Source: Theionarchaea archaeon (GTDB taxonomy: Archaea > Methanobacteriota_B > Thermococci > Methanofastidiosales > SZ-28-30). Taken from it: a DNA stretch of 64,000 nt. A program made the position numbers and the translations under genes. Below, one piece after another: positions 51,026 to 64,000 of the stretch (the first letter of the stretch is position 1; every line of letters starts with the position of its first letter). The notes below the pieces were generated by a model. The model saw only the letters and a list, made by a program, of their open reading frames with translations, was not told where the DNA came from and did not search any database. The stretch spans positions 67,349 to 131,348 of the forward strand of contig JACVGT010000014.1 in NCBI GenBank assembly GCA_018992685.1. The letters are read 5' to 3'.

Positions 51026-52234
51026 ATGAAAATTGGAGAAGCCTTAGTAGGGGATGGACTGGAAGTCGCTCATATTGATCTGATTATTGGAGAAAAGGAC
51101 AGTGCAGTTGGGCAGGCTTTTGTAAGCAGCCTTGCTCAGCCTTCCTACGGTCATACCCCTATGCTGGGCGTCATACGTCCCAACCTGCCCTCTAAACCAT
51201 CCACCCTTATTGTGCCCAAAGTCACCATAAGAGGGTTCAAAGATGCAGGAAAAATGTTCGGCCCTGCCCAGGCAGGAGTTGCCAAGGCAGTGGCTGATGC
51301 AGTGGAGGAGGGACTGATTCCACGAGAACACTGCGAGGACTGGGTTGTCATTGTTTCTGTGTTTATTCACAAAGATGCTTCAGATTATCGGAAGATTTAT
51401 CAATATAACTACGGAGCAACGAAACTGGCCATAAAGAGGGCCATGGAAGACTATCCTTCGGTTGAGAAAGTCATAAGAGAGAAGGATAGGGCTACTCACC
51501 CCATCATGGGATTCAGAGTGTACCGGCTGTGGAATTCACCCTATCTGCAGGTTGCTCTTGACCTGACCAGCGAAGAACAGGTCAAGAATATCATCGAAAA
51601 ACTGCCTCTCAGGGAGCGATTGCTGCTGGAAGCGGGTACGCCTCTCATAAAGAACTGCGGCATTGAAATCGTGGAAAAGATTAGGGCAATGCGACAGGAA
51701 TCTTTCATTATTGCAGACCTGAAAACACTGGATGTGGGAAGGTTAGAGGTGAAAATGGCAGCAGATGCAACAGCAGATGCAGTGTGTATTTCAGGACTCG
51801 GTCCCAATGCATCGGTGGAAAAATCCATTCAGGAAGCGTACAGGCAGGGCATTTACTCGATTGTGGACTTTATGAATGTTACAGATATTGAGAAAAAACT
51901 GAAATCTCTGAAATATAAGCCCGATATCGCCCTCATTCACCGCAATGTGGATGTGGAGACTGCGGCCAGAGAACGAGGGGAGGAGCCGGAGACCAAATGG
52001 GGAAATATTACAGCTATCAAGAAGCTGGTCAAGCTTGTTTCAGTGGCAGGCGGCATCACGCCTCAGACCTGTGGAGAGGCACTGGACAAAGGTGCTGATA
52101 TTATAGTAGTTGGCAGGTACATTATCAGGTCGTATGATCCCTACCAGGCAGCCCGGGACTTCTTGGAGAAAATGCCTCCTGATCCTGATACTATGCGACT
52201 AATCCTGGACGAAGATGAAGTGGTAGGAACATAA
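51026..52234 (+). CDS. fae-hps: Bifunctional formaldehyde-activating enzyme / 3-hexulose-6-phosphate synthase
   Basis: [36 protein letters not shown]; [25 protein letters not shown]. Confidence 0.95.
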
Positions 52235-54366: not shown

Positions 54367-55437
54367 TCATACTCGCACAATATTGAACCCTGCTGATTTT
54401 CTCAACCTATTCATGATTGCCAATCCAATCTCGGCAGTGACTACCCCTTCTGCTATGATAATATCCACTCCTTGTTCATCGAAAGCACGAAGCACATCAA
54501 ACAAGTTCCTGGCTACAGTTCCCAGGTTCCTGCGGGAACCTACTACCTTAATGAGACCCTGATTGTAGCAATGCGCTGTTTCTTCGGTTGCCATTACTCC
54601 TACCTTCAGTCCTTGACGTATTTTCTGGTTCAGGAGCTGGTTAATTTTTTCTACCATGGGCCCTACCTGACCTTCCACCACAATCACTTCAGCATGAGGT
54701 GAGTAATGTTTGTACTTCATGCCAGGTGCGCGGGCTTCTGCTTCCGTTTTTGCTGCTGCAGCTGCTACAGGATGAACCTCCACGTTACCCAGAACTGCTC
54801 TAAGATCTTCTAGAGTAATGCCCCCCGGTCTCAGAATAGTGGGCACCTCCCCTGTTAGATCAAGAACAGTAGACTCAACTCCCACATCACACGGCCCTCC
54901 ATCAAGGAGAACTTCTATCTTTCCTGCCAGGTCTTGATACACATGCTGAGCTGTGGTGGGACTTACCCCACCTGAGATATTTGCGCTGGGAGCAGATATG
55001 GGAACCCCTGATTCAGCAATGAGTGCCAAAGCTACGTTGTGATCAGGCATCCTCACTGTTATCTCATCTATGTTCTCCGGTCTGGGCACATGTGGGGCTT
55101 TCTTCAGCAGCAACGTGAGGGGTCCAGGCCAGAACCGTTTGGTTAATACCTCTGTGGAATCTGGTATTTCCCTTGCCAAATCATACACTGCATCTTTCTC
55201 AGACACATGGACAATGAGTGGATTGTCATATGGTCTGTTTTTGGCCTGGAAGATTCTCAAGACAGCTCTGACGTCGAAAGTATTTGCACCCAGCCCGTAC
55301 ACTGTTTCTGTGGGAAATGCAACCAATCCACCTTCCCTAATCACCTGTGCTGCAATCCTGATTTTGTAGAGTTCCGGGGTTTCCCTGTCCACAGTAATGA
55401 CCTGGGTTTTCACGACGGGTCCAGTCTTCGTTTCCAT
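54367..55437 (-). CDS. sua5: Threonylcarbamoyl-AMP synthase Sua5
   Basis: FPTETVYGL, KNRPYDNPLIVH, APSANISG, PGMKYKHYSP. Confidence 0.96.
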   Translation of the reverse strand: METKTGPVVKTQVITVDRETPELYKIRIAAQVIREGGLVAFPTETVYGLGANTFDVRAVLRIFQAKNRPYDNPLIVHVSEKDAVYDLAREIPDSTEVLTKRFWPGPLTLLLKKAPHVPRPENIDEITVRMPDHNVALALIAESGVPISAPSANISGGVSPTTAQHVYQDLAGKIEVLLDGGPCDVGVESTVLDLTGEVPTILRPGGITLEDLRAVLGNVEVHPVAAAAAKTEAEARAPGMKYKHYSPHAEVIVVEGQVGPMVEKINQLLNQKIRQGLKVGVMATEETAHCYNQGLIKVVGSRRNLGTVARNLFDVLRAFDEQGVDIIIAEGVVTAEIGLAIMNRLRKSAGFNIVRV

Positions 55438-55572
55438 TTCAACATCCTCACGCTGTAGATCTATTCTCCTAATGAGTATACAAGTATATAAGTACTGGGC
55501 AGGTAATCAGGAAAAGGAATTCATAAGCCAAAGAAGTCAAAAAGATTCAGGCTTCCTTCGTGATGTGATTGG

Positions 55573-56190
55573 ATGATACGTATCAGGAAAGGTGCAGAAG
55601 CTGACCTGTATCTCACAGAGTTTTCAGCATTGTATTTCCCCTGGAACAGTGAAAAGGTCCTCATTAAGAAAAGAATCAGCAAAGGGTACAGACAACCAGA
55701 GCTTGATCATGAACTCAGGCAGAGAAGGACGATCCATGAAGCAAAGCTTCTTCATGAAGCCAAAGCATATGTTCATACCCCCGTTCTCTATGAGATAGAC
55801 ACAGAAGACTGTACCATCACAATGGAGTACGTTGAGGGAGCGAGGGCGAAAGATGACATGACAGAAGACATGGCAGAAGAGATTGGTGCGTGCATTGCCC
55901 GCCTACATGAAGGAGGAATTGTGCATGGCGATTTAACCACCTCTAATATCATTCTGAAAGGGTCCCGCATCTACTTCATTGATTTCGGACTGGGAGAAGT
56001 CACCACGGAAATAGAGCCTCAGGCAGTTGATTTGCATCTTTTGAAACAGGCCCTAGAGAGCACTCATTATACACACTGGAGGAAATTATGGAAGAAAATT
56101 CTGGAAGGATACAAAACTCGTTCTGGATCCCATGATGTAATTAAAAGGATCAGAGAAATCGAGAAAAGGGGACGATATTCCAAACGTTAG
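55573..56190 (+). CDS. bud32: KEOPS kinase Bud32
   Basis: GAEA, KKRISKGYR, HGDLTTSN, IDFGL, RGRY. Confidence 0.95.
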   Translation: MIRIRKGAEADLYLTEFSALYFPWNSEKVLIKKRISKGYRQPELDHELRQRRTIHEAKLLHEAKAYVHTPVLYEIDTEDCTITMEYVEGARAKDDMTEDMAEEIGACIARLHEGGIVHGDLTTSNIILKGSRIYFIDFGLGEVTTEIEPQAVDLHLLKQALESTHYTHWRKLWKKILEGYKTRSGSHDVIKRIREIEKRGRYSKR

Positions 56191-56477
56191 GGCTCCAGTC
56201 CCTCATACCTTTTCTGTTTGGTTGCAAGGCTTTCCAGCACTTCTGTGAGCTTATTAATGTGTTCTTTGAGCCGCATGGTATCCTTGGCCATGAGCTCAGT
56301 CCGTTCTTTGAGCTTTTCTATCTGTCTTCCCTGTTCAGCTATCTTCCTTTCAAGGTTTCCCGTGTTTTCTGCCTTTTTGCCCTGAAGATAATTAATGTAT
56401 CGTTCCAGCTTTTTTTGATGTTCCCGCAATTCCTCAACATCATGAAATAAACGGGGCAATCGGTAGCTGTAATCCAT
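56187..56477 (-). CDS. Coiled-coil hypothetical protein
   Basis: Heptad-rich 96-aa ORF; CTTATAT box upstream. Confidence 0.6.
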   Translation of the reverse strand: MDYSYRLPRLFHDVEELREHQKKLERYINYLQGKKAENTGNLERKIAEQGRQIEKLKERTELMAKDTMRLKEHINKLTEVLESLATKQKRYEGLEP

Positions 56478-56651
56478 AAATCTTGTGGTAAGACCGGATA
56501 TATAAGTCTTGTGCTGTGATGAGATCAACGATCACTTGAGAGATCATACCGTGGAGAACTACAGAGTTTACCAATGCCAATGGACTACCAAAAGGTTTAT
56601 ATTTACAGTCATAAGGTATTTTATGAGAATTAATGTTCTACGAGGAGGGGT

Positions 56652-58793
<2,142 letters not shown>

Positions 58794-58970
58794 ACGGATG
58801 TATACGATTCACCTTAAAAGGTGTTTTGCTAGCATCATTTTTGGCAGGAGGAACCGATCCAACGGAGAGGATGGGTGTGATTAACCCACCAGATTATCCC
58901 GAAGCTAGATTCAACATATGCTGGAACCGGCAGCAAAATGGCCTTCCGAAATTTTCAAGTGAACTTCGAT

Positions 58971-58991
58971 ATTTCCACTCTATATGGAAAT
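58971..58991. promoter_or_regulatory. 7-7-7 inverted repeat, candidate operator upstream of the terpene cyclase locus
   Basis: ATTTCCA-ctctata-TGGAAAT, about 80 nt before an AAACCTTTTAAA BRE/TATA box. Confidence 0.3.
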
Positions 58992-59300
58992 TTTACAGAA
59001 AAAACATCAATCCTTCGGTAAGATGATTGCAATTCCTTCAACGAAAAAAACAACTGCATGTTGGTACCATAAACCTTTTAAAGGGGACTCAACCAATGTG
59101 AAAGCGGAGGAAAAGGATGAGAGACAAGGTACTGTGTAGAGGACGAGCTAGACAGAATGTGGCTCGGGCAAGAGCCGTCTTTTTATCAGATAGGAATTTG
59201 TCATTGGACAGAAATAACCACTTTAGAGTCTTTTTCAGATATTTCTGCTCATTATTCCTCTATACCTTTGGTACCCCTCTCAGACAAGGGAGGTGTGAAG

Positions 59301-59528
59301 ATGAAGATGAAGATGAGTATAGATGAGTTTTTGGATTTTTTTGATCTCGGTGGGACCCAGATGCGAGGAAAAATCCAAAGGGTTTTTCCTGAGGGCGTCC
59401 CAAAGCCGGAATTGGACACTATTTGTGCAGCAGATTCCCTTTTCAGGAGATCTGTAATTGATTTTGGCGGTTTGAGCTCGCATTCCGGAGGTGGGAAATA
59501 TGCAAAACACGGTTTTGCAGTCAACTGA
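59301..59528 (+). CDS. Small ORF or gene remnant directly upstream of the cyclase
   Basis: GGAGGTG RBS then MKMKMSIDEFLDFFDLGG...; overlaps the cyclase start. Confidence 0.35.
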   Translation: MKMKMSIDEFLDFFDLGGTQMRGKIQRVFPEGVPKPELDTICAADSLFRRSVIDFGGLSSHSGGGKYAKHGFAVN

Positions 59529-60969
59529 AATTGTGAAACATGACGGAGGAAAAATGAGCAGTTCAGCATATGATACTGCGTGGGTGGCACGGGTCACAGA
59601 CCAACAGGGGACATCAGTATTTCCAGAATGTGTTCAATGGATTCTGGAAAACCAGAAACAGGATGGAAGCTGGGGCAGTCAGATTCTGGATTATCATGAC
59701 AGGATACTTTCTACCTTGAGTGCCATCATAGCTCTCAAAGAGCTAGATGGGATTCGGTACAAGGACCATATCCAGAAAGGAGAAAGCTACATCTGGAGGA
59801 ACATGAGGAAAATGAGGAAGGACAACTGTGTATTCGTCGGAGGAGAGCTCCTCTTGCCTTCACTCATGGAACACGCAGAATCAATAGGGCTGAATCTTCC
59901 ATATTACGTGAAAGTCTATGAGAGGAAGTGCAGGGCAAAACTTGAGAAAATTGACAGATCCTTATGGTATTCGCCCTTAACATCTCTTTCATTCTCGTTT
60001 GAATTTTTGGGAGATGAGGTGGATGTGGAGCGCCTGCCATACATCAGACTGCCCAATGGGTCTGTGGGGAACTCCCCTGCAGCCACTGCTTTCTACCTCA
60101 AACATAGAAAGGATGAGGAGGCTGTCCAGTATCTGAGGAGAATTCTCTGCCTAAGAGGAGATGGCTCAGTCATGGAAGCATTCCCCATTGAAGCATTTGA
60201 ATTGGGATGGGTCATGTACAACCTTATGCTGGCAGGTCTTTATCTTGAGCAATACAATGAAATCTGCACGTATCTGACGAAAAACTTGAAGCCTTCAGGG
60301 ATTGGCATGTCTACAGGATTTCCCGTTCCAGATTTGGACGATACAGCAATACTCCTGAAAGCACTGCACAGAATGCAACACTGTGTAGATTTCAGCATAA
60401 TTGACGAATATGACATGGGGGAGTACTACGCCACGTACACCTTTGAGGTAGGTGCTTCAGTTAGCACTAACATTCACATGTTGGATCTTGTCAAGAGCTG
60501 CCCTCAATTTCCGCGGAGAAATGAGAACATAGATAAGTTGATAGCGTTCATTAAGAAAGAAATGCATTCTCCAGGTTATTGGGCCGATAAGTGGCACATT
60601 TCGCCGTATTATACCACCAGTCATGGAATCATGGCCTTAAGTGGGTTAGACTCAGACCTGGCTGGGAAAGCTGTATCCTGGATTCTGCAATCTCAAAACG
60701 AGAATGGAAAATGGGGAAGAAATGGAGGAACATTGGAGGAAACGGCATTGGCTTTGCAGGCCCTGATGTACTACCATCGCAACGTTGAACCCATTGACAT
60801 GGAAGGAATTTCCAAAGCCATGAAGTTTCTTCATGTCGATGTGTCTTCTCTGACCTCTCTGGATTTACCCGACATGTGGATATGCAAGGTCTTGTACACT
60901 CCCACACGAATTGTTCAATCTTCGATAGCTAGCACGCAATTACTGGGGGGAATAGAGAACTGTGGATAG
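59500..60969 (+). CDS. Class II (protonation-initiated) diterpene cyclase, beta-gamma didomain
   Basis: SSAYDTAWVA, QKQDGSWG, GSVGNSPAATA, catalytic DLDDTA, SVSTNIH, DKWHISPYYTT, QNENGKWG, EETALA; GGAGGTG RBS. Confidence 0.88.
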   Translation: MQNTVLQSTEIVKHDGGKMSSSAYDTAWVARVTDQQGTSVFPECVQWILENQKQDGSWGSQILDYHDRILSTLSAIIALKELDGIRYKDHIQKGESYIWRNMRKMRKDNCVFVGGELLLPSLMEHAESIGLNLPYYVKVYERKCRAKLEKIDRSLWYSPLTSLSFSFEFLGDEVDVERLPYIRLPNGSVGNSPAATAFYLKHRKDEEAVQYLRRILCLRGDGSVMEAFPIEAFELGWVMYNLMLAGLYLEQYNEICTYLTKNLKPSGIGMSTGFPVPDLDDTAILLKALHRMQHCVDFSIIDEYDMGEYYATYTFEVGASVSTNIHMLDLVKSCPQFPRRNENIDKLIAFIKKEMHSPGYWADKWHISPYYTTSHGIMALSGLDSDLAGKAVSWILQSQNENGKWGRNGGTLEETALALQALMYYHRNVEPIDMEGISKAMKFLHVDVSSLTSLDLPDMWICKVLYTPTRIVQSSIASTQLLGGIENCG

Positions 60970-61173
60970 CCTCCCGAGATGACGTCTCCCTATAGACACG
61001 ATGGGCCGTGGGGTTGTAGCTGAACAATTGGGAGCGCTTGTTTGAAGAATCCAGAAATGCCAGGTGCACCAGCTGACCGCATCAAATCGACCAGTGACAG
61101 TAACCCTGTTGATTTATATATCTGATAAGCCTTGTACTTTCATCACGATTGGAGATATCAGGAGGACTTTCAA

Positions 61174-61881
61174 GTGTCAATCGAAGCTGTACTCTTTGAT
61201 CTAGACGACACGCTAATCAGAAGATCTATGAAGAAGCCAGAAGACTTACACAGAGTTCTAAATCAGAAAAACATATCAGTTTCTCTGGAAGAGGTAAGAA
61301 GGGCATGTTGCCGACTGGAAAGTGAACTACAGGAAAGTCTGGGATATAAATTGAAGACTCAGCGTGGAAAGGTTCCTCATTCCACACTTTACCACATATG
61401 GAAATCATATTTCTATAAAGCGATCGGAATAGAAGCTCATAAGATGAATGGGAAACACGAAATTGATCTAGGCTGGGCAGATATCTGTGATACCGAAATC
61501 TATCCTGACGTAATTCCTTTTTTGGCAAATCTGAAGTCTCAAGGGATTAGGGTGGGGATTATTTCAAATGCCTATGAAAGGGAAGTGGAACAAATACTAG
61601 AGATCGCGGGATTGGACAGGGAGTTCTTTGATATCATTGTCGGGCCGGATACTGCATCTAGTATTAAGCCGGAGCCGGAAATCTTCCTGCATGTATTGAG
61701 GATTCTTGGGGTCGAACCTGCCCACGCAATCTATGTGGGAAATGATCTAGAGAGAGATTATGTAGGAGCTGAAGAAGTAGGCATGAAATCTTTTTTGATC
61801 TTGAGATCAGAAAATGAGAAAGTAAACGAAAATGTAAGACTCATCAGGAATCTCACGTCTCTGAAAGAGCAGTTGGACTAG
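61174..61881 (+). CDS. HAD-superfamily hydrolase
   Basis: FDLDDTL, ISN, KPEPEIF, VGNDLERDYVGA; GGAGG RBS before GTG. Confidence 0.92.
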   Translation: MSIEAVLFDLDDTLIRRSMKKPEDLHRVLNQKNISVSLEEVRRACCRLESELQESLGYKLKTQRGKVPHSTLYHIWKSYFYKAIGIEAHKMNGKHEIDLGWADICDTEIYPDVIPFLANLKSQGIRVGIISNAYEREVEQILEIAGLDREFFDIIVGPDTASSIKPEPEIFLHVLRILGVEPAHAIYVGNDLERDYVGAEEVGMKSFLILRSENEKVNENVRLIRNLTSLKEQLD

Positions 61882-62060
61882 TACCCCGATCTTCTTTGAG
61901 GTTCCCCGATACTCTCTAGTCTATCATCATCGAATTGAACATGATTTTCTGGTGTAATGCCTGGCTTCTAATGTTGCTCTGGCTTTCCCAGCCATGCTCG
62001 ATGAGACTCAGTTTTCTAGAAAAAAAATGTAACTTCGCTAAAAAAAGAAAAGATGAAAAA

Positions 62061-62717
62061 TCATCTTCTTGTAACTTTCCCGATAGCCATTCCGTAGAAT
62101 ATGACAATCCATGCAACTGCATGAAGCAGATGAGTTGCCGCTTCAACAGCAACCGAAAGTGCCAATCCAAAGATGACGGCAGTCAATGCATCTAAGGCCC
62201 ATCCATAAGCCAGCAGTGAAACTGTTCTTCTCCGTGGATCGCCTGCTTCGAGTCTCCTGTATACCCGATAGAAGAGAAATGCTATGGAGAACTTGATCGG
62301 TCCCATCACAATGATCCCTGATAGAACAGTAGCTCCAGCAATGAAATCTTGTTCGTCAGCAAATATGCTAAAAAGTGCAATAATCGAAAAGAATATCACC
62401 AGAAGGATGACCGAAAATTTCTCTCTGAAAAAAGATCCTGAGCTGAAAAACAGTTGGGATGCTCCATAGTACAATAGTACCATTGCCAAAGCCAACACCA
62501 TGAATCCAAGGGTCATTGCAAGTACTCCGACTTGAGTGGGACCAGATACTTCAACGAGAATGGGTTGAATCTGCGTCAAAGAATACAGGAAGAGCCCCAC
62601 TGCCCAAGCGAGTGATGCACGTAGCCTCTTGGCAAAGTAGTCACGGAAAAAATAGAGCGAAAGTACCAATCCTGCCGCAATGGCAACTACGTAGGTTCCG
62701 GTAACCAAGTAGTTCAT
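62061..62717 (-). CDS. Polytopic (about 7 TM) membrane protein
   Basis: Seven hydrophobic segments; resembles stand-alone sensor N-terminal domains. Confidence 0.75.
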   Translation of the reverse strand: MNYLVTGTYVVAIAAGLVLSLYFFRDYFAKRLRASLAWAVGLFLYSLTQIQPILVEVSGPTQVGVLAMTLGFMVLALAMVLLYYGASQLFFSSGSFFREKFSVILLVIFFSIIALFSIFADEQDFIAGATVLSGIIVMGPIKFSIAFLFYRVYRRLEAGDPRRRTVSLLAYGWALDALTAVIFGLALSVAVEAATHLLHAVAWIVIFYGMAIGKVTRR

Positions 62718-62833
62718 GAATTCACCTTTTGGGTTTTGTTTGAGGGTCGAGTCATAGCTCGTACTATTAGGATAATGTGACGGACTCATATTTAAGTCTA
62801 TCTGTTAGGATGGCTTCGGGACAGAATTCATTT

Positions 62834-62995
62834 TCACTTCTTTAGGATTATGACATAAGCCCTCCTGCCGATATATTCTCTTGGAGCACCAATCTTTGCG
62901 CTGTTTCCAAACGGAGTTATTTCTTTCTCATATACCATTTCTGCTTCATCGGTGAGCACGATCTTCTCATTGTCAATGATCTCAATTTTCCTCAT
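62834..62995 (-). CDS. DUF2080 transposase-associated protein
   Basis: YEKEITPFGNSAKIGAPREYIGRRAYVII. Confidence 0.9.
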   Translation of the reverse strand: MRKIEIIDNEKIVLTDEAEMVYEKEITPFGNSAKIGAPREYIGRRAYVIILKK

Positions 62996-63046
62996 ATATA
63001 GGATATCCAAGGATATCCTTATAAAGGTTTCTCTCATTGTAACTTT

Positions 63047-64000
63047 ATGAGGATCACAAAGAAGGAGGTACAAGACGCGATCAATACGTTAAAAATAGTG
63101 AGAAAGAAGATTTTTGAGGGGAGAAAACCAGACTACTCCCATACAGAGTGGGAACAGAAGAGAAAGAAGGTGAATGAAAAACTGAGAAAGCTCTATGCAT
63201 TCGTTGATGAGGCAGTCAGTACCATTGCCATTACACACTCCCGTGGCAGACCAAGAACTCTTGACCTGGCAAAGAGGACCATACTCTTCCTGTTTACTGT
63301 GCTCATTAACAAGAGCAACAGAGATACTGCTGCATTACTCGAATTTTTCGAGCCATTTTTTGGATTCAAAGTCAACTACAAGTACATAGAAAGACTCTAC
63401 TCTGATGAACAGGTCAAGGCGGCCTTACACAATATCTTCTACCTGCTACTGGTAGCTGAAGGGATATCTGGTAAGTTCGCAGGTGATGGTACGGGATATT
63501 CTCTAACCATTACGAAGCACTACCGGTCCACTCCTCAAAAGAAGGCAAAAGATTACCGGTATGCCTTCAGGTTGATTGACCTGGAGACTGGCATGTACAC
63601 AGGGGTTGGATACTCCACACGATCAGAAATGGATGCGTTCAACAAGGCCATGAGTATGCTCTCTGATTCTGGAATATCAATCACTTCCATTGCTCTAGAC
63701 AAGTACTACAGCTCACGAAAGGTATTAAAGCTCTTTGGTGAAGAAACAGCAGTATACGTCATCCCCAAAAACAATATTTCGAGAATAGGACCAAAATGGG
63801 CGAAAATCTTCAAAACGATCATGGAAAACCCTGTTGAATACCTGGAAAAGTACTTCCAGAGAAACCTGAGTGAAACAGGCTTCTCAGCAGATAAGAGACG
63901 ATTTGGATGGACACTACGCCAGAAACGAGAGGATAGACAGGAAACAGCCATGTTTTCCATTGCCCTTCTGCATAATCTCTTTGCAGTACGAGTGTCAACG
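63047..64000 (+). CDS. DDE transposase (open to the window edge)
   Basis: Manual translation MRITKKEV...RGRP...KSNR...YKYIERLYSD...GDGTGY...LDKYYS...RNLSETGFSADKRRFG, no internal stop. Confidence 0.9.
   Translation, partial: MRITKKEVQDAINTLKIVRKKIFEGRKPDYSHTEWEQKRKKVNEKLRKLYAFVDEAVSTIAITHSRGRPRTLDLAKRTILFLFTVLINKSNRDTAALLEFFEPFFGFKVNYKYIERLYSDEQVKAALHNIFYLLLVAEGISGKFAGDGTGYSLTITKHYRSTPQKKAKDYRYAFRLIDLETGMYTGVGYSTRSEMDAFNKAMSMLSDSGISITSIALDKYYSSRKVLKLFGEETAVYVIPKNNISRIGPKWAKIFKTIMENPVEYLEKYFQRNLSETGFSADKRRFGWTLRQKREDRQETAMFSIALLHNLFAVRVST

Follow-up and report, generated by a model that had tools for sequence, protein, structure and literature searches.

The locus described here raises the question of whether a euryarchaeon possesses an enzyme of its own for the formation of cyclic diterpenoids and which of the neighbouring genes belong with it. 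The stretch of DNA analysed (hereafter the window) comprises 64,000 nt from a Theionarchaea archaeon (contig JACVGT010000014.1, C8:67349-131348) and ends where contig C8 ends. The genome has a size of 3.03 Mb, consists of 45 contigs and is 91% complete and 0.7% contaminated. The gene in question codes for a protein of 489 amino acids (aa) that resembles class II diterpene cyclases. A previous sequence-only reading had joined this gene to that of a haloacid dehalogenase (HAD) type hydrolase, proposing that geranylgeranyl diphosphate (GGPP) is cyclised and subsequently dephosphorylated to an alcohol. Of that overall reading, the cyclase itself stood up to comparison with related loci and the literature, and the link to the hydrolase and the claim of novelty did not. 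Two conserved partners had been missed: a small open reading frame (ORF) overlapping the cyclase gene and a membrane protein with seven transmembrane helices (7-TM protein).

Identification of the cyclase

The features of the locus are listed in Table 1. The motifs on which the sequence-only reading was built are all present in the translated cyclase ORF, namely SAYDTAW (residues 22-28), the acidic motif DLDD (D278-D281, followed by T282) and DKWHxSPYY, here DKWHISPYY (D363-Y371). Two further segments, NQKQDGSWG and SQNENGKWG, ending at W58 and W405, are QW-type motifs in the usual definition of the term. The length of 489 aa refers to a start at ATG 59500, which is preceded at a distance of 6 nt by the Shine-Dalgarno-like sequence GGAGGTG; a start at GTG 59491 would yield 492 aa.

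Table 1 Position and characteristics of the features at the cyclase locus (window coordinates)
Feature	Position	Strand	Characteristics
Conserved non-coding region	58945..59145	+	about 200 nt long; lies in the intergenic space that separates the small ORF from the divergent phosphoesterase gene
Small ORF	59301..59528	+	75 aa (about 69-76 aa in relatives); own Shine-Dalgarno sequence GGGAGGTG; overlaps the cyclase start
Class II (beta-gamma) diterpene cyclase	59500..60969	+	489 aa; assigned by Pfam, PDB search and catalytic residues
TATA-like element TTTATATA	61113..61120	+	about 54 nt before the HAD start codon; putative promoter, by consensus only
HAD-IA hydrolase	61174..61881	+	235 aa from GTG 61174; nucleophile motif DLDDT; assigned by Pfam and NCBIfam
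Seven-TM membrane protein	62061..62717	-	218 aa; ORF open back to 62789; convergent with the cyclase gene
IS5-family element	62812..64000	+	transposase ORF from 63047, open at the 3' end; terminates the contig

In Pfam, the protein matches SQHop_cyclase_C (E 2e-15), which identifies the superfamily domain only. Comparison with the PDB (phmmer) yielded 6vpt_A as the best match (E 2e-58), covering residues 16-479 of 489; together with the Pfam match, this puts the assignment as a cyclase well outside chance. According to the available text of PMC9585517, this structure is the halimadienyl diphosphate synthase Rv3377c (MtHPS) of Mycobacterium tuberculosis. Plant ent-copalyl diphosphate synthase (3pya, 7.9e-42) and other class II or bifunctional diterpene synthases of plants and fungi follow, and the bacterial enzymes PtmT2 (5bp8, 5.5e-33) and Tpn2 (7xkx, 7.8e-21) were also matched. 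Squalene-hopene cyclases are matched no better than 4e-9, over a stretch of about 75 residues, and the drimenyl diphosphate synthase 7xq4 is matched at an E value of 0.57 only.

For Rv3377c, the accessible part of the same publication (PMC9585517) gives D295, located within D293-x-D295-T296, as the general acid, H341 as the residue that activates it, W380 of the (D/E)KW motif as its shield and Y479 as the catalytic base; Y328 and F171 are named as residues that shape the product outcome. These positions were transferred to the window cyclase by counting by hand along the alignment of the PDB search. Each residue number named fell on the right letter in the 6vpt row, and the count was therefore considered validated. 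The counterparts are D280 (D295), H326 (H341), W365 (W380), Y466 (Y479), Y313 (Y328) and F165 (F171), with the identical residue at every position, so that both the activating histidine and the tryptophan of the DKW motif (D363-K364-W365) are present. In an alignment of 39 members of the cyclase family (A1), D280 and H326 are conserved in 39/39 sequences, W365 in 38/39 and Y466 in 36/39.

The fold was examined on the AlphaFold2 (AF2) model of a 56%-identical relative, P0044, and not on the window cyclase itself. This model is confident over the cyclase part and superimposes best on 6vpt (TM score 0.85 on the target, root-mean-square deviation 3.6 Å, E 1e-26), followed by Tpn2 (TM score 0.75) and PtmT2 (0.74). 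Based on the PDB matches, the retained catalytic residues and the fold of the relative, the 489-aa protein is, as judged from its sequence, an intact two-domain class II diterpene cyclase. This agrees with the sequence-only reading, which had assigned an intact catalytic motif and GGPP as the likely substrate. Among the named homologues, those closest to the window protein (55-61% identity) come under the labels Candidatus Methanofastidiosia archaeon or Theionarchaea archaeon. In JGI, many homologous entries bear the name halimadienyl-diphosphate synthase, which is an automatic label.

Conserved gene neighbourhood

A metagenome scan provided 80 loci; together with L003, a locus from genome G033, 15 of them have cyclases with 47-63% identity to the window protein. 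These 15 related loci represent about 11 distinct genes, as L004/L005/L006, L007/L008 and L018/L019 are near-duplicates from different samples. A search of genome contigs for related loci returned only L002, an unrelated bacterial locus. The genes of the window were compared by tblastn with 82 loci in total.

By tblastn and a hidden Markov model of alignment A2, 12 of the 15 related loci have a homologue of the small ORF that likewise overlaps the cyclase start, and 13 have a homologue of the 7-TM protein. The small ORF is missing in L010, in which the upstream sequence is cut off, in L017 and in L009, which has one weak match elsewhere. The 7-TM protein is missing in L010 and L017, both with little downstream sequence. 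Neither of the two was found in the 67 more distant loci, whose cyclases are at most 42% identical. The flanking genes for triosephosphate isomerase (TIM), glyceraldehyde-3-phosphate dehydrogenase (GAPDH) and the phosphoesterase show the same distribution: TIM is present in six loci and GAPDH and the phosphoesterase in eight each, all among the 15, and all three are absent from the other 67. In the loci that were mapped (12 of the 15), the gene order is that of the window.

On a single metagenome contig (L021 4230-7763 and L007 6820-9313), the trio of small ORF, cyclase and 7-TM gene is present in two complete copies separated by about 10 kb, whose cyclase paralogues share 55% and 61% identity with the window protein. 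The duplication of the trio on one contig is the best argument that the three genes belong together. Small ORF, cyclase and 7-TM protein form a conserved three-gene module, which is undescribed.

The last 29 nt of the small ORF overlap the start of the cyclase gene in another frame. In all nine loci examined, the frame of the small ORF is open over the first 60 codons, and the other two forward frames contain 3-8 stops each. Pairwise differences at the first, second and third codon positions amount to 408, 278 and 452 in 1182 codon comparisons, a weak but correct coding pattern. Two homologues of 712 aa, P0044 (nine member sequences) and P0061, are natural in-frame fusions that carry the small-ORF peptide directly before the cyclase, after an uncharacterised N-terminal stretch of about 150 aa. 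A profile search in 1.84 billion representative sequences yielded 31 proteins, 30 of which are 52-163 aa long, the longer ones matching at their C-terminal end; the remaining weak match of 1282 aa is probably spurious. Pfam gave no match and NCBIfam no family for the small ORF, and the Atlas offered no lead (best score 0.81, recognition 1327).

The small ORF of the window opens with a threefold AAGATG repeat (59301-59318, MKMKM), which places three in-frame starts behind the Shine-Dalgarno sequence; in relatives the unit occurs once. Each of the two ORFs, small ORF and cyclase, has its own Shine-Dalgarno sequence and ATG, and a programmed frameshift between them was set aside.

The 7-TM protein matches no family in Pfam or NCBIfam. 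A word search found 16 relatives, all unnamed or hypothetical, one of which (PVF58_09475) adjoins the cyclase homologue PVF58_09470. The AF2 model contains seven helices and is of high confidence (pLDDT 92.4, pTM 0.88). The invariant residues cluster in basic loops (RLRASLAW, GSFFREK and DPRRRT). Following the positive-inside rule, by which basic loops face the cytoplasm, these conserved loops should be cytoplasmic. Foldseek found no PDB match to the model at E<=0.001. In VIA-align, G-protein-coupled receptors (GPCRs) or designed GPCR-like folds occupy 49 of 50 rows with a top Z score of 13.4, and values near 13 are common for helical bundles. In the Atlas, the protein is placed with archaeal clusters without a name at 0.95; the nearest named cluster lies at 0.85 and has HisKA_7TM on 10% of its members. 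A second 7-TM paralogue with about 31% identity is encoded at C5:86659-87330, away from any cyclase.

The HAD hydrolase

The sequence-only reading had pointed to a co-oriented HAD gene 204 nt downstream of the cyclase gene with a TATA-like box of its own. Both details are accurate: the likely start codon, GTG 61174, lies exactly 204 nt past the cyclase stop codon, with AGGAGGA at 61160-61166 in front of it, and the box is found where Table 1 gives it. The protein is a member of the HAD-IA group, with Pfam matches to Hydrolase (8.4e-24) and HAD_2 (1.3e-22). Its best NCBIfam model, TIGR02253, is matched with 111 bits, which is below the cut-off of 169.75. The best PDB match is 4ygq (1.1e-20), followed by phosphoglycolate phosphatases and hypothetical HAD proteins of Pyrococcus.

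Whether cyclase and HAD act in sequence, with the hydrolase converting the bicyclic diterpenyl diphosphate to the free alcohol, was weighed on the basis of the related loci. Such a pairing is chemically reasonable given the bacterial drimenol synthase AsDMS, in which, according to the available portions of PMC12232559, PMC9128629 and PMC12365925, a class II cyclase is fused to a HAD phosphatase. Apart from orientation and distance in the window, a HAD of the same family occurs about 1-4 kb from the cyclase in three other distinct loci (L007/L008, L010 and L042). However, 11 of the 15 related loci lack it, and in the four that have it neither strand nor position is constant, and it is not fused to the cyclase in any of them. 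The gene lies on the opposite strand beyond the 7-TM gene in L007 and its near-duplicate L008, on the opposite strand about 4 kb away in L042, and on the same strand beyond a radical-SAM gene in L010. In L003, which holds the 60%-identical orthologue of the same genus, there is no HAD gene and the 7-TM gene comes immediately after the cyclase.

The hydrolase itself also provides little to connect it with terpenoids. It is a generic HAD-IA protein with its own Shine-Dalgarno sequence and TATA-like box, and among the best 60 of its 85 PDB matches there is no entry for a drimenol synthase or a terpenyl-diphosphate phosphatase. In addition, the genome contains a second copy at C3:229066-229731, and the HAD of L042 is about 47% identical to both copies, so that the orthology of the HAD genes is unclear. 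Consecutive action of cyclase and HAD, which the sequence-only reading itself had flagged as unproven, is thus considered unlikely; the HAD gene is probably an incidental neighbour of the cyclase gene. Comparison of loci thereby corrects an attractive but weakly supported pathway.

Probable substrate and product

The cyclase probably converts GGPP to a bicyclic C20 diphosphate. The genome contains three polyprenyl synthase genes, from which GGPP could be supplied, and this archaeon would already make GGPP for its lipids. Following established class II chemistry and the papers cited, D280 of the DLDD motif, which H326 would orient for reaction and W365 would shield, would protonate the terminal double bond (C14=C15) of GGPP. 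Bicyclisation would lead to the labda-13-en-8-yl cation, and hydride and methyl shifts with a final deprotonation, possibly by Y466, would give a halimadienyl-type diphosphate. The bicyclic product would retain its diphosphate group.

A rearranged skeleton of the halimadienyl or clerodane type is most likely favoured over plain copalyl diphosphate. Halimadienyl diphosphate itself is a tentative assignment. The equivalents of Y479, Y328 and F171 of Rv3377c are all kept, a phenylalanine is found where copalyl diphosphate synthases carry the base histidine, and halimadienyl diphosphate is the product of the Asgard enzymes of the sister clade (bioRxiv 10.1101/2025.02.07.637177).

Several observations weigh against this assignment. 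As far as the available text of PMC9814783 goes, Tpn2 has an analogous tyrosine and makes a clerodane and no halimadienyl diphosphate, and the His/Phe rule known from plants failed in bacteria. Prediction of products from residues is unreliable in prokaryotes. Moreover, the window cyclase has a canonical DxDD motif versus DxDT in Rv3377c, and at a product-shaping position it has E226-A227 versus A234-F235. The Asgard enzymes are described merely as having DxD, and DxDT may therefore not define the whole family of halimadienyl synthases.

In alignment A1, position 165, which corresponds to the histidine of the base dyad of copalyl diphosphate synthases, is occupied by Phe in 22, His in 11 and Tyr in 6 of the 39 sequences. 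At position 226, the equivalent of the asparagine of this dyad, the Glu of the window cyclase is shared by only its three or four closest relatives, and 27/39 sequences have Thr. This variation hints at a diversification of products within the archaeal clade.

It appears quite improbable that the cyclase acts on another substrate, be it farnesyl diphosphate (FPP), from which drimenyl diphosphate would arise, prenyl diphosphates of C25-C40, or prenylated lipids, for example unsaturated archaeol precursors. Pfam and NCBIfam recognise no more than a generic squalene-cyclase superfamily domain, archaea contain many prenylated lipid intermediates, and the conserved membrane-protein partner could hint at a membrane-bound substrate. 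On the other hand, the strong matches (Rv3377c, the copalyl diphosphate synthases of plants and fungi, PtmT2 and Tpn2) all use GGPP, the drimenyl diphosphate synthase and the squalene cyclases are far weaker matches, and GGPP is also the substrate of the nearest assayed clade.

With GGPP as the probable substrate, the next question concerns the fate of the diphosphate. A search for the class I terpene synthase family PF19086, the only class I family searched for, gave no match in the 91%-complete genome. Obvious candidates for what happens next, be it membrane recruitment, export, sensing or processing, are the two conserved partners of the cyclase. If the products of all three genes acted as one lineage-specific functional unit, the small acidic protein, the conserved basic cytoplasmic loops of the GPCR-like 7-TM protein or both would recruit the soluble cyclase to the GGPP-making membrane. 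The bicyclic diterpenoid would then pass to the membrane protein for export, sensing or further processing.

We regard such a unit as a rather doubtful proposal. The argument for a joint function of the trio is its conserved adjacency, and since housekeeping genes are found in the same neighbourhood, vertical synteny could explain part of this adjacency. In the model of P0044, the N-terminal 234 residues are mostly of low confidence, with residues 1-46, 75-101 and 137-234 below a pLDDT of 50; the last of these segments is the small-ORF module, for which no confident docking onto the cyclase is seen.

Origin of the cyclase gene

The cyclase gene is present as a single copy and is embedded in genes of archaeal type, namely those for Fae-Hps, Kae1/TsaD, Sua5, a Bud32-like kinase, a short TIM of 221 aa, GAPDH and an MJ0936-type phosphoesterase. 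The G + C content at the cyclase locus (0.445-0.446) is within the range found across the window (0.43-0.50). Among 133 species-representative genomes of the phylum, which is also the class, the gene is found in only two, the present one (G000) and G033, which belong to the same genus.

Contigs from four other sequencing runs were compared with positions 55500-64000 of the window. One contig of run X4, which stems from a different sample of the probable source study, spans 59114-62811 with five differences and thus bridges the small ORF, the cyclase, the HAD and the 7-TM gene. Pieces from runs X9 and X12, which belong to other studies, bridge the cyclase end into the intergenic region and the HAD gene to the 7-TM gene. 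In run X3, a fraction of 0.93 of the sampled words of 58800-62100 is present, and 59760-62600 is not covered, although such holes prove nothing. Contigs break only at 59074-59114, a short repeated box, and at 62811/62818, the edge of the insertion sequence (IS).

The sequence-only reading had raised the concern of a chimeric bacterial insert and had asked for continuity of the contig with archaeal genes. Such an insert is contradicted by the TIM-GAPDH-phosphoesterase synteny of the related loci. That the segment is a bacterial insert or an assembly or binning chimera is extremely improbable: the IS5 element at the contig end, 1.1 kb from the module, and the occurrence in two of 133 representative genomes would fit such an origin, but the order TIM, GAPDH, phosphoesterase, small ORF, cyclase and 7-TM recurs in loci whose cyclases have no more than 47-63% identity, the closest homologues with a name come from Methanofastidiosia and Theionarchaea metagenome-assembled genomes, the flanking genes are of archaeal type, the G + C content does not deviate, and contigs of other runs bridge the junctions. 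Based on the recurring archaeal synteny, the unremarkable G + C content and the independent bridging contigs, we reject a chimeric insert. The cyclase gene is native archaeal DNA that has long been inherited in this chromosomal neighbourhood, within a lineage related to Theionarchaea/Methanofastidiosales.

The nearby IS noted in the sequence-only reading is an element of the IS5 family, whose transposase ORF continues to the window end. The ORF matches NCBIfam NF033579 with an E value of 7.4e-14, which is below the model cut-off. The element starts about 95 nt upstream of the likely start of the 7-TM gene, and its first 242 nt have a 97.5%-identical copy inside contig C3 (C3:23915-24155).

Upstream region

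In 12 loci, blastn aligned the non-coding region upstream of the small ORF over 89-212 nt with a nucleotide identity of 71-82%, which exceeds the conservation of the cyclase coding sequence. Alignments of nine loci (A5 and A6) show a near-palindrome, TTCCGAAATTTTCAAG, at about 58937-58952 and an element resembling a B recognition element and TATA box (BRE/TATA-like), CCTTTTAAAGG, at 59074-59084. About 25 nt downstream of the latter, an almost invariant box beginning with GGAGGAAAAGGATGAGAGAC starts at 59106. The BRE/TATA-like element and this box are interpreted as the putative promoter and the 5' end of the transcript. The module would accordingly possess a conserved promoter and leader, and its small ORF and cyclase gene are presumably coupled in translation.

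ORFs of 64-83 aa on the minus strand of the upstream region in relatives were rejected as genes; they have TTG starts and would need a change of frame in the window. Because of this change of frame, the conservation of the region is not protein-coding. RNAalifold found no consensus RNA fold in the upstream region (energies 0 to -5), and a search of Rfam over 55000-64000 found nothing credible, the sole match being PhrS with an E value of 0.94.

Two pieces of 19 nt, corresponding to the leader box and to the context of Shine-Dalgarno sequence and ATG, recur in the same order at C1:288329-288410, in front of a hydrophobic ORF of 32 codons. These boxes could be a shared regulatory leader. Contigs with a short form of the leader are abundant in metagenomes; in run X4, the joints have a depth of 333-340, about seven times that of the cyclase contig.

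Comparison with known enzymes

According to the sequence-only reading, cyclised terpenoids were not established as archaeal products. This premise of novelty no longer holds given the results of McShea, De Anda, Brocks, Welander and Baker, the one directly relevant study to emerge from the literature searched, who reported 64 archaeal diterpenoid cyclase genes and obtained halimadienyl diphosphate from GGPP with two Asgard enzymes in vitro (bioRxiv 10.1101/2025.02.07.637177). Three other archaeal terpene synthases without an InterPro signature have been validated, the product identified being the sesquiterpenoid beta-bisabolol, according to the accessible part of Samusevich et al. (10.1101/2024.01.29.577750). 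The window cyclase itself belongs to this recently described kind of archaeal enzyme.

It shares with the Asgard cyclases (Hodarchaeales/Kariarchaeaceae) the stand-alone class II architecture, the acidic DxD motif and the equivalents of H341 and W380, and GGPP is the substrate of those that were assayed. The tree of McShea et al. contains a clade of Thermoplasmata, Theionarchaea and Methanofastidiosia that is sister to the Asgard and plant enzymes, and the assays covered Asgard enzymes (bioRxiv 10.1101/2025.02.07.637177). The named relatives of the window protein belong to this sister clade. The main text of that study describes no gene neighbourhoods and, in contrast to the present locus, contains no small overlapping ORF, 7-TM partner or conserved leader. 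As far as the literature was searched, nothing has been published on the small coupled ORF, on the 7-TM partner with its duplicated trio or on the conserved leader.

Rv3377c is the closest characterised structure by sequence and by the model of the relative. It is of similar length (501 aa) and has the same acid Asp, activating His, (D/E)KW Trp, base Tyr and residues at the Y328 and F171 positions. It differs in having about 30% identity, in the two motif differences discussed above and in its wholly different genomic context. Measured against the halimadienyl diphosphate synthases (EC 5.5.1.16), the window cyclase has the base Tyr and the two product-shaping residues (Y466, Y313 and F165), which are insufficient alone for an assignment, and lacks the DxDT(T) variant of the acid motif of Rv3377c.

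The copalyl, kolavenyl and terpentedienyl synthases (PtmT2 5BP8, Tpn2 7XKX and AtCPS 3PYA) agree with the window cyclase in the beta-gamma fold, the DxDD acid, the QW motifs and the use of GGPP. They are, however, weaker matches (E 1e-21 to 1e-42; TM scores of 0.74-0.75 for PtmT2 and Tpn2), and the His-Asn base dyad of copalyl diphosphate synthases contrasts with Phe165 and Glu; furthermore, the window cyclase has no alpha domain. AsDMS, as described in the available portions of the sources named above, is the only precedent for the two-step idea and combines a class II cyclase with a HAD-type hydrolase. In the window, by contrast, these are separate genes with separate start signals, the pairing occurs in 4 of 15 loci, the hydrolase is a generic HAD-IA protein and the cyclase is of the two-domain diterpene type.

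The reality of archaeal diterpene cyclases was established as late as 2025, and for two Asgard enzymes only. The window provides a complete native example from the euryarchaeal sister clade of the assayed enzymes. A word-based protein search retrieved 925 homologues of the cyclase, more than 90 of them with at least 46% identity, and the diversity of the clade in sediment metagenomes is thus far above the 64 archaeal genes reported. The small coupled protein, the 7-TM protein and the leader may explain how archaea use a cyclic diterpenyl diphosphate. Should the product be a halimane or a clerodane, anaerobic sediment archaea would become a candidate source of bicyclic diterpane biomarkers that are now credited to plants or bacteria. 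If the three proteins indeed formed one unit, the module would be a dedicated archaeal system for the production and perception (or membrane insertion) of a diterpenoid under a conserved regulatory leader, and halimane- or clerodane-type biomarkers would have a source in marine-sediment archaea.

Extended neighbourhood and other genes

Several relatives (L005, L007, L009, L010, L014, L018, L021, L036 and L042) carry extra genes within a few kb of the cyclase. These code for an 875-aa PPDK_N/PEP-utiliser protein with a DUF7065-like neighbour of about 300 aa, B12-binding radical SAM enzymes, a condensation/PapA_C-type acyltransferase, an Fe-S protein and an unnamed family of 313 aa. In the genome studied here, the PPDK-like and DUF7065-like pair is located at C7:109187-112478 and the acyltransferase on another contig as well (C12:71079-72422); the 313-aa family was not found in this genome. 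Since this extended neighbourhood lies away from the cyclase here, it is not counted as part of the system. It may be the remnant of a larger biosynthetic neighbourhood.

At 51026-52234, the window contains a fused gene for Fae (formaldehyde-activating enzyme) and an Hps-type protein with the OMP-decarboxylase fold. It adjoins the Kae1/Sua5/Bud32 cluster and is an ordinary marker of an archaeal host.

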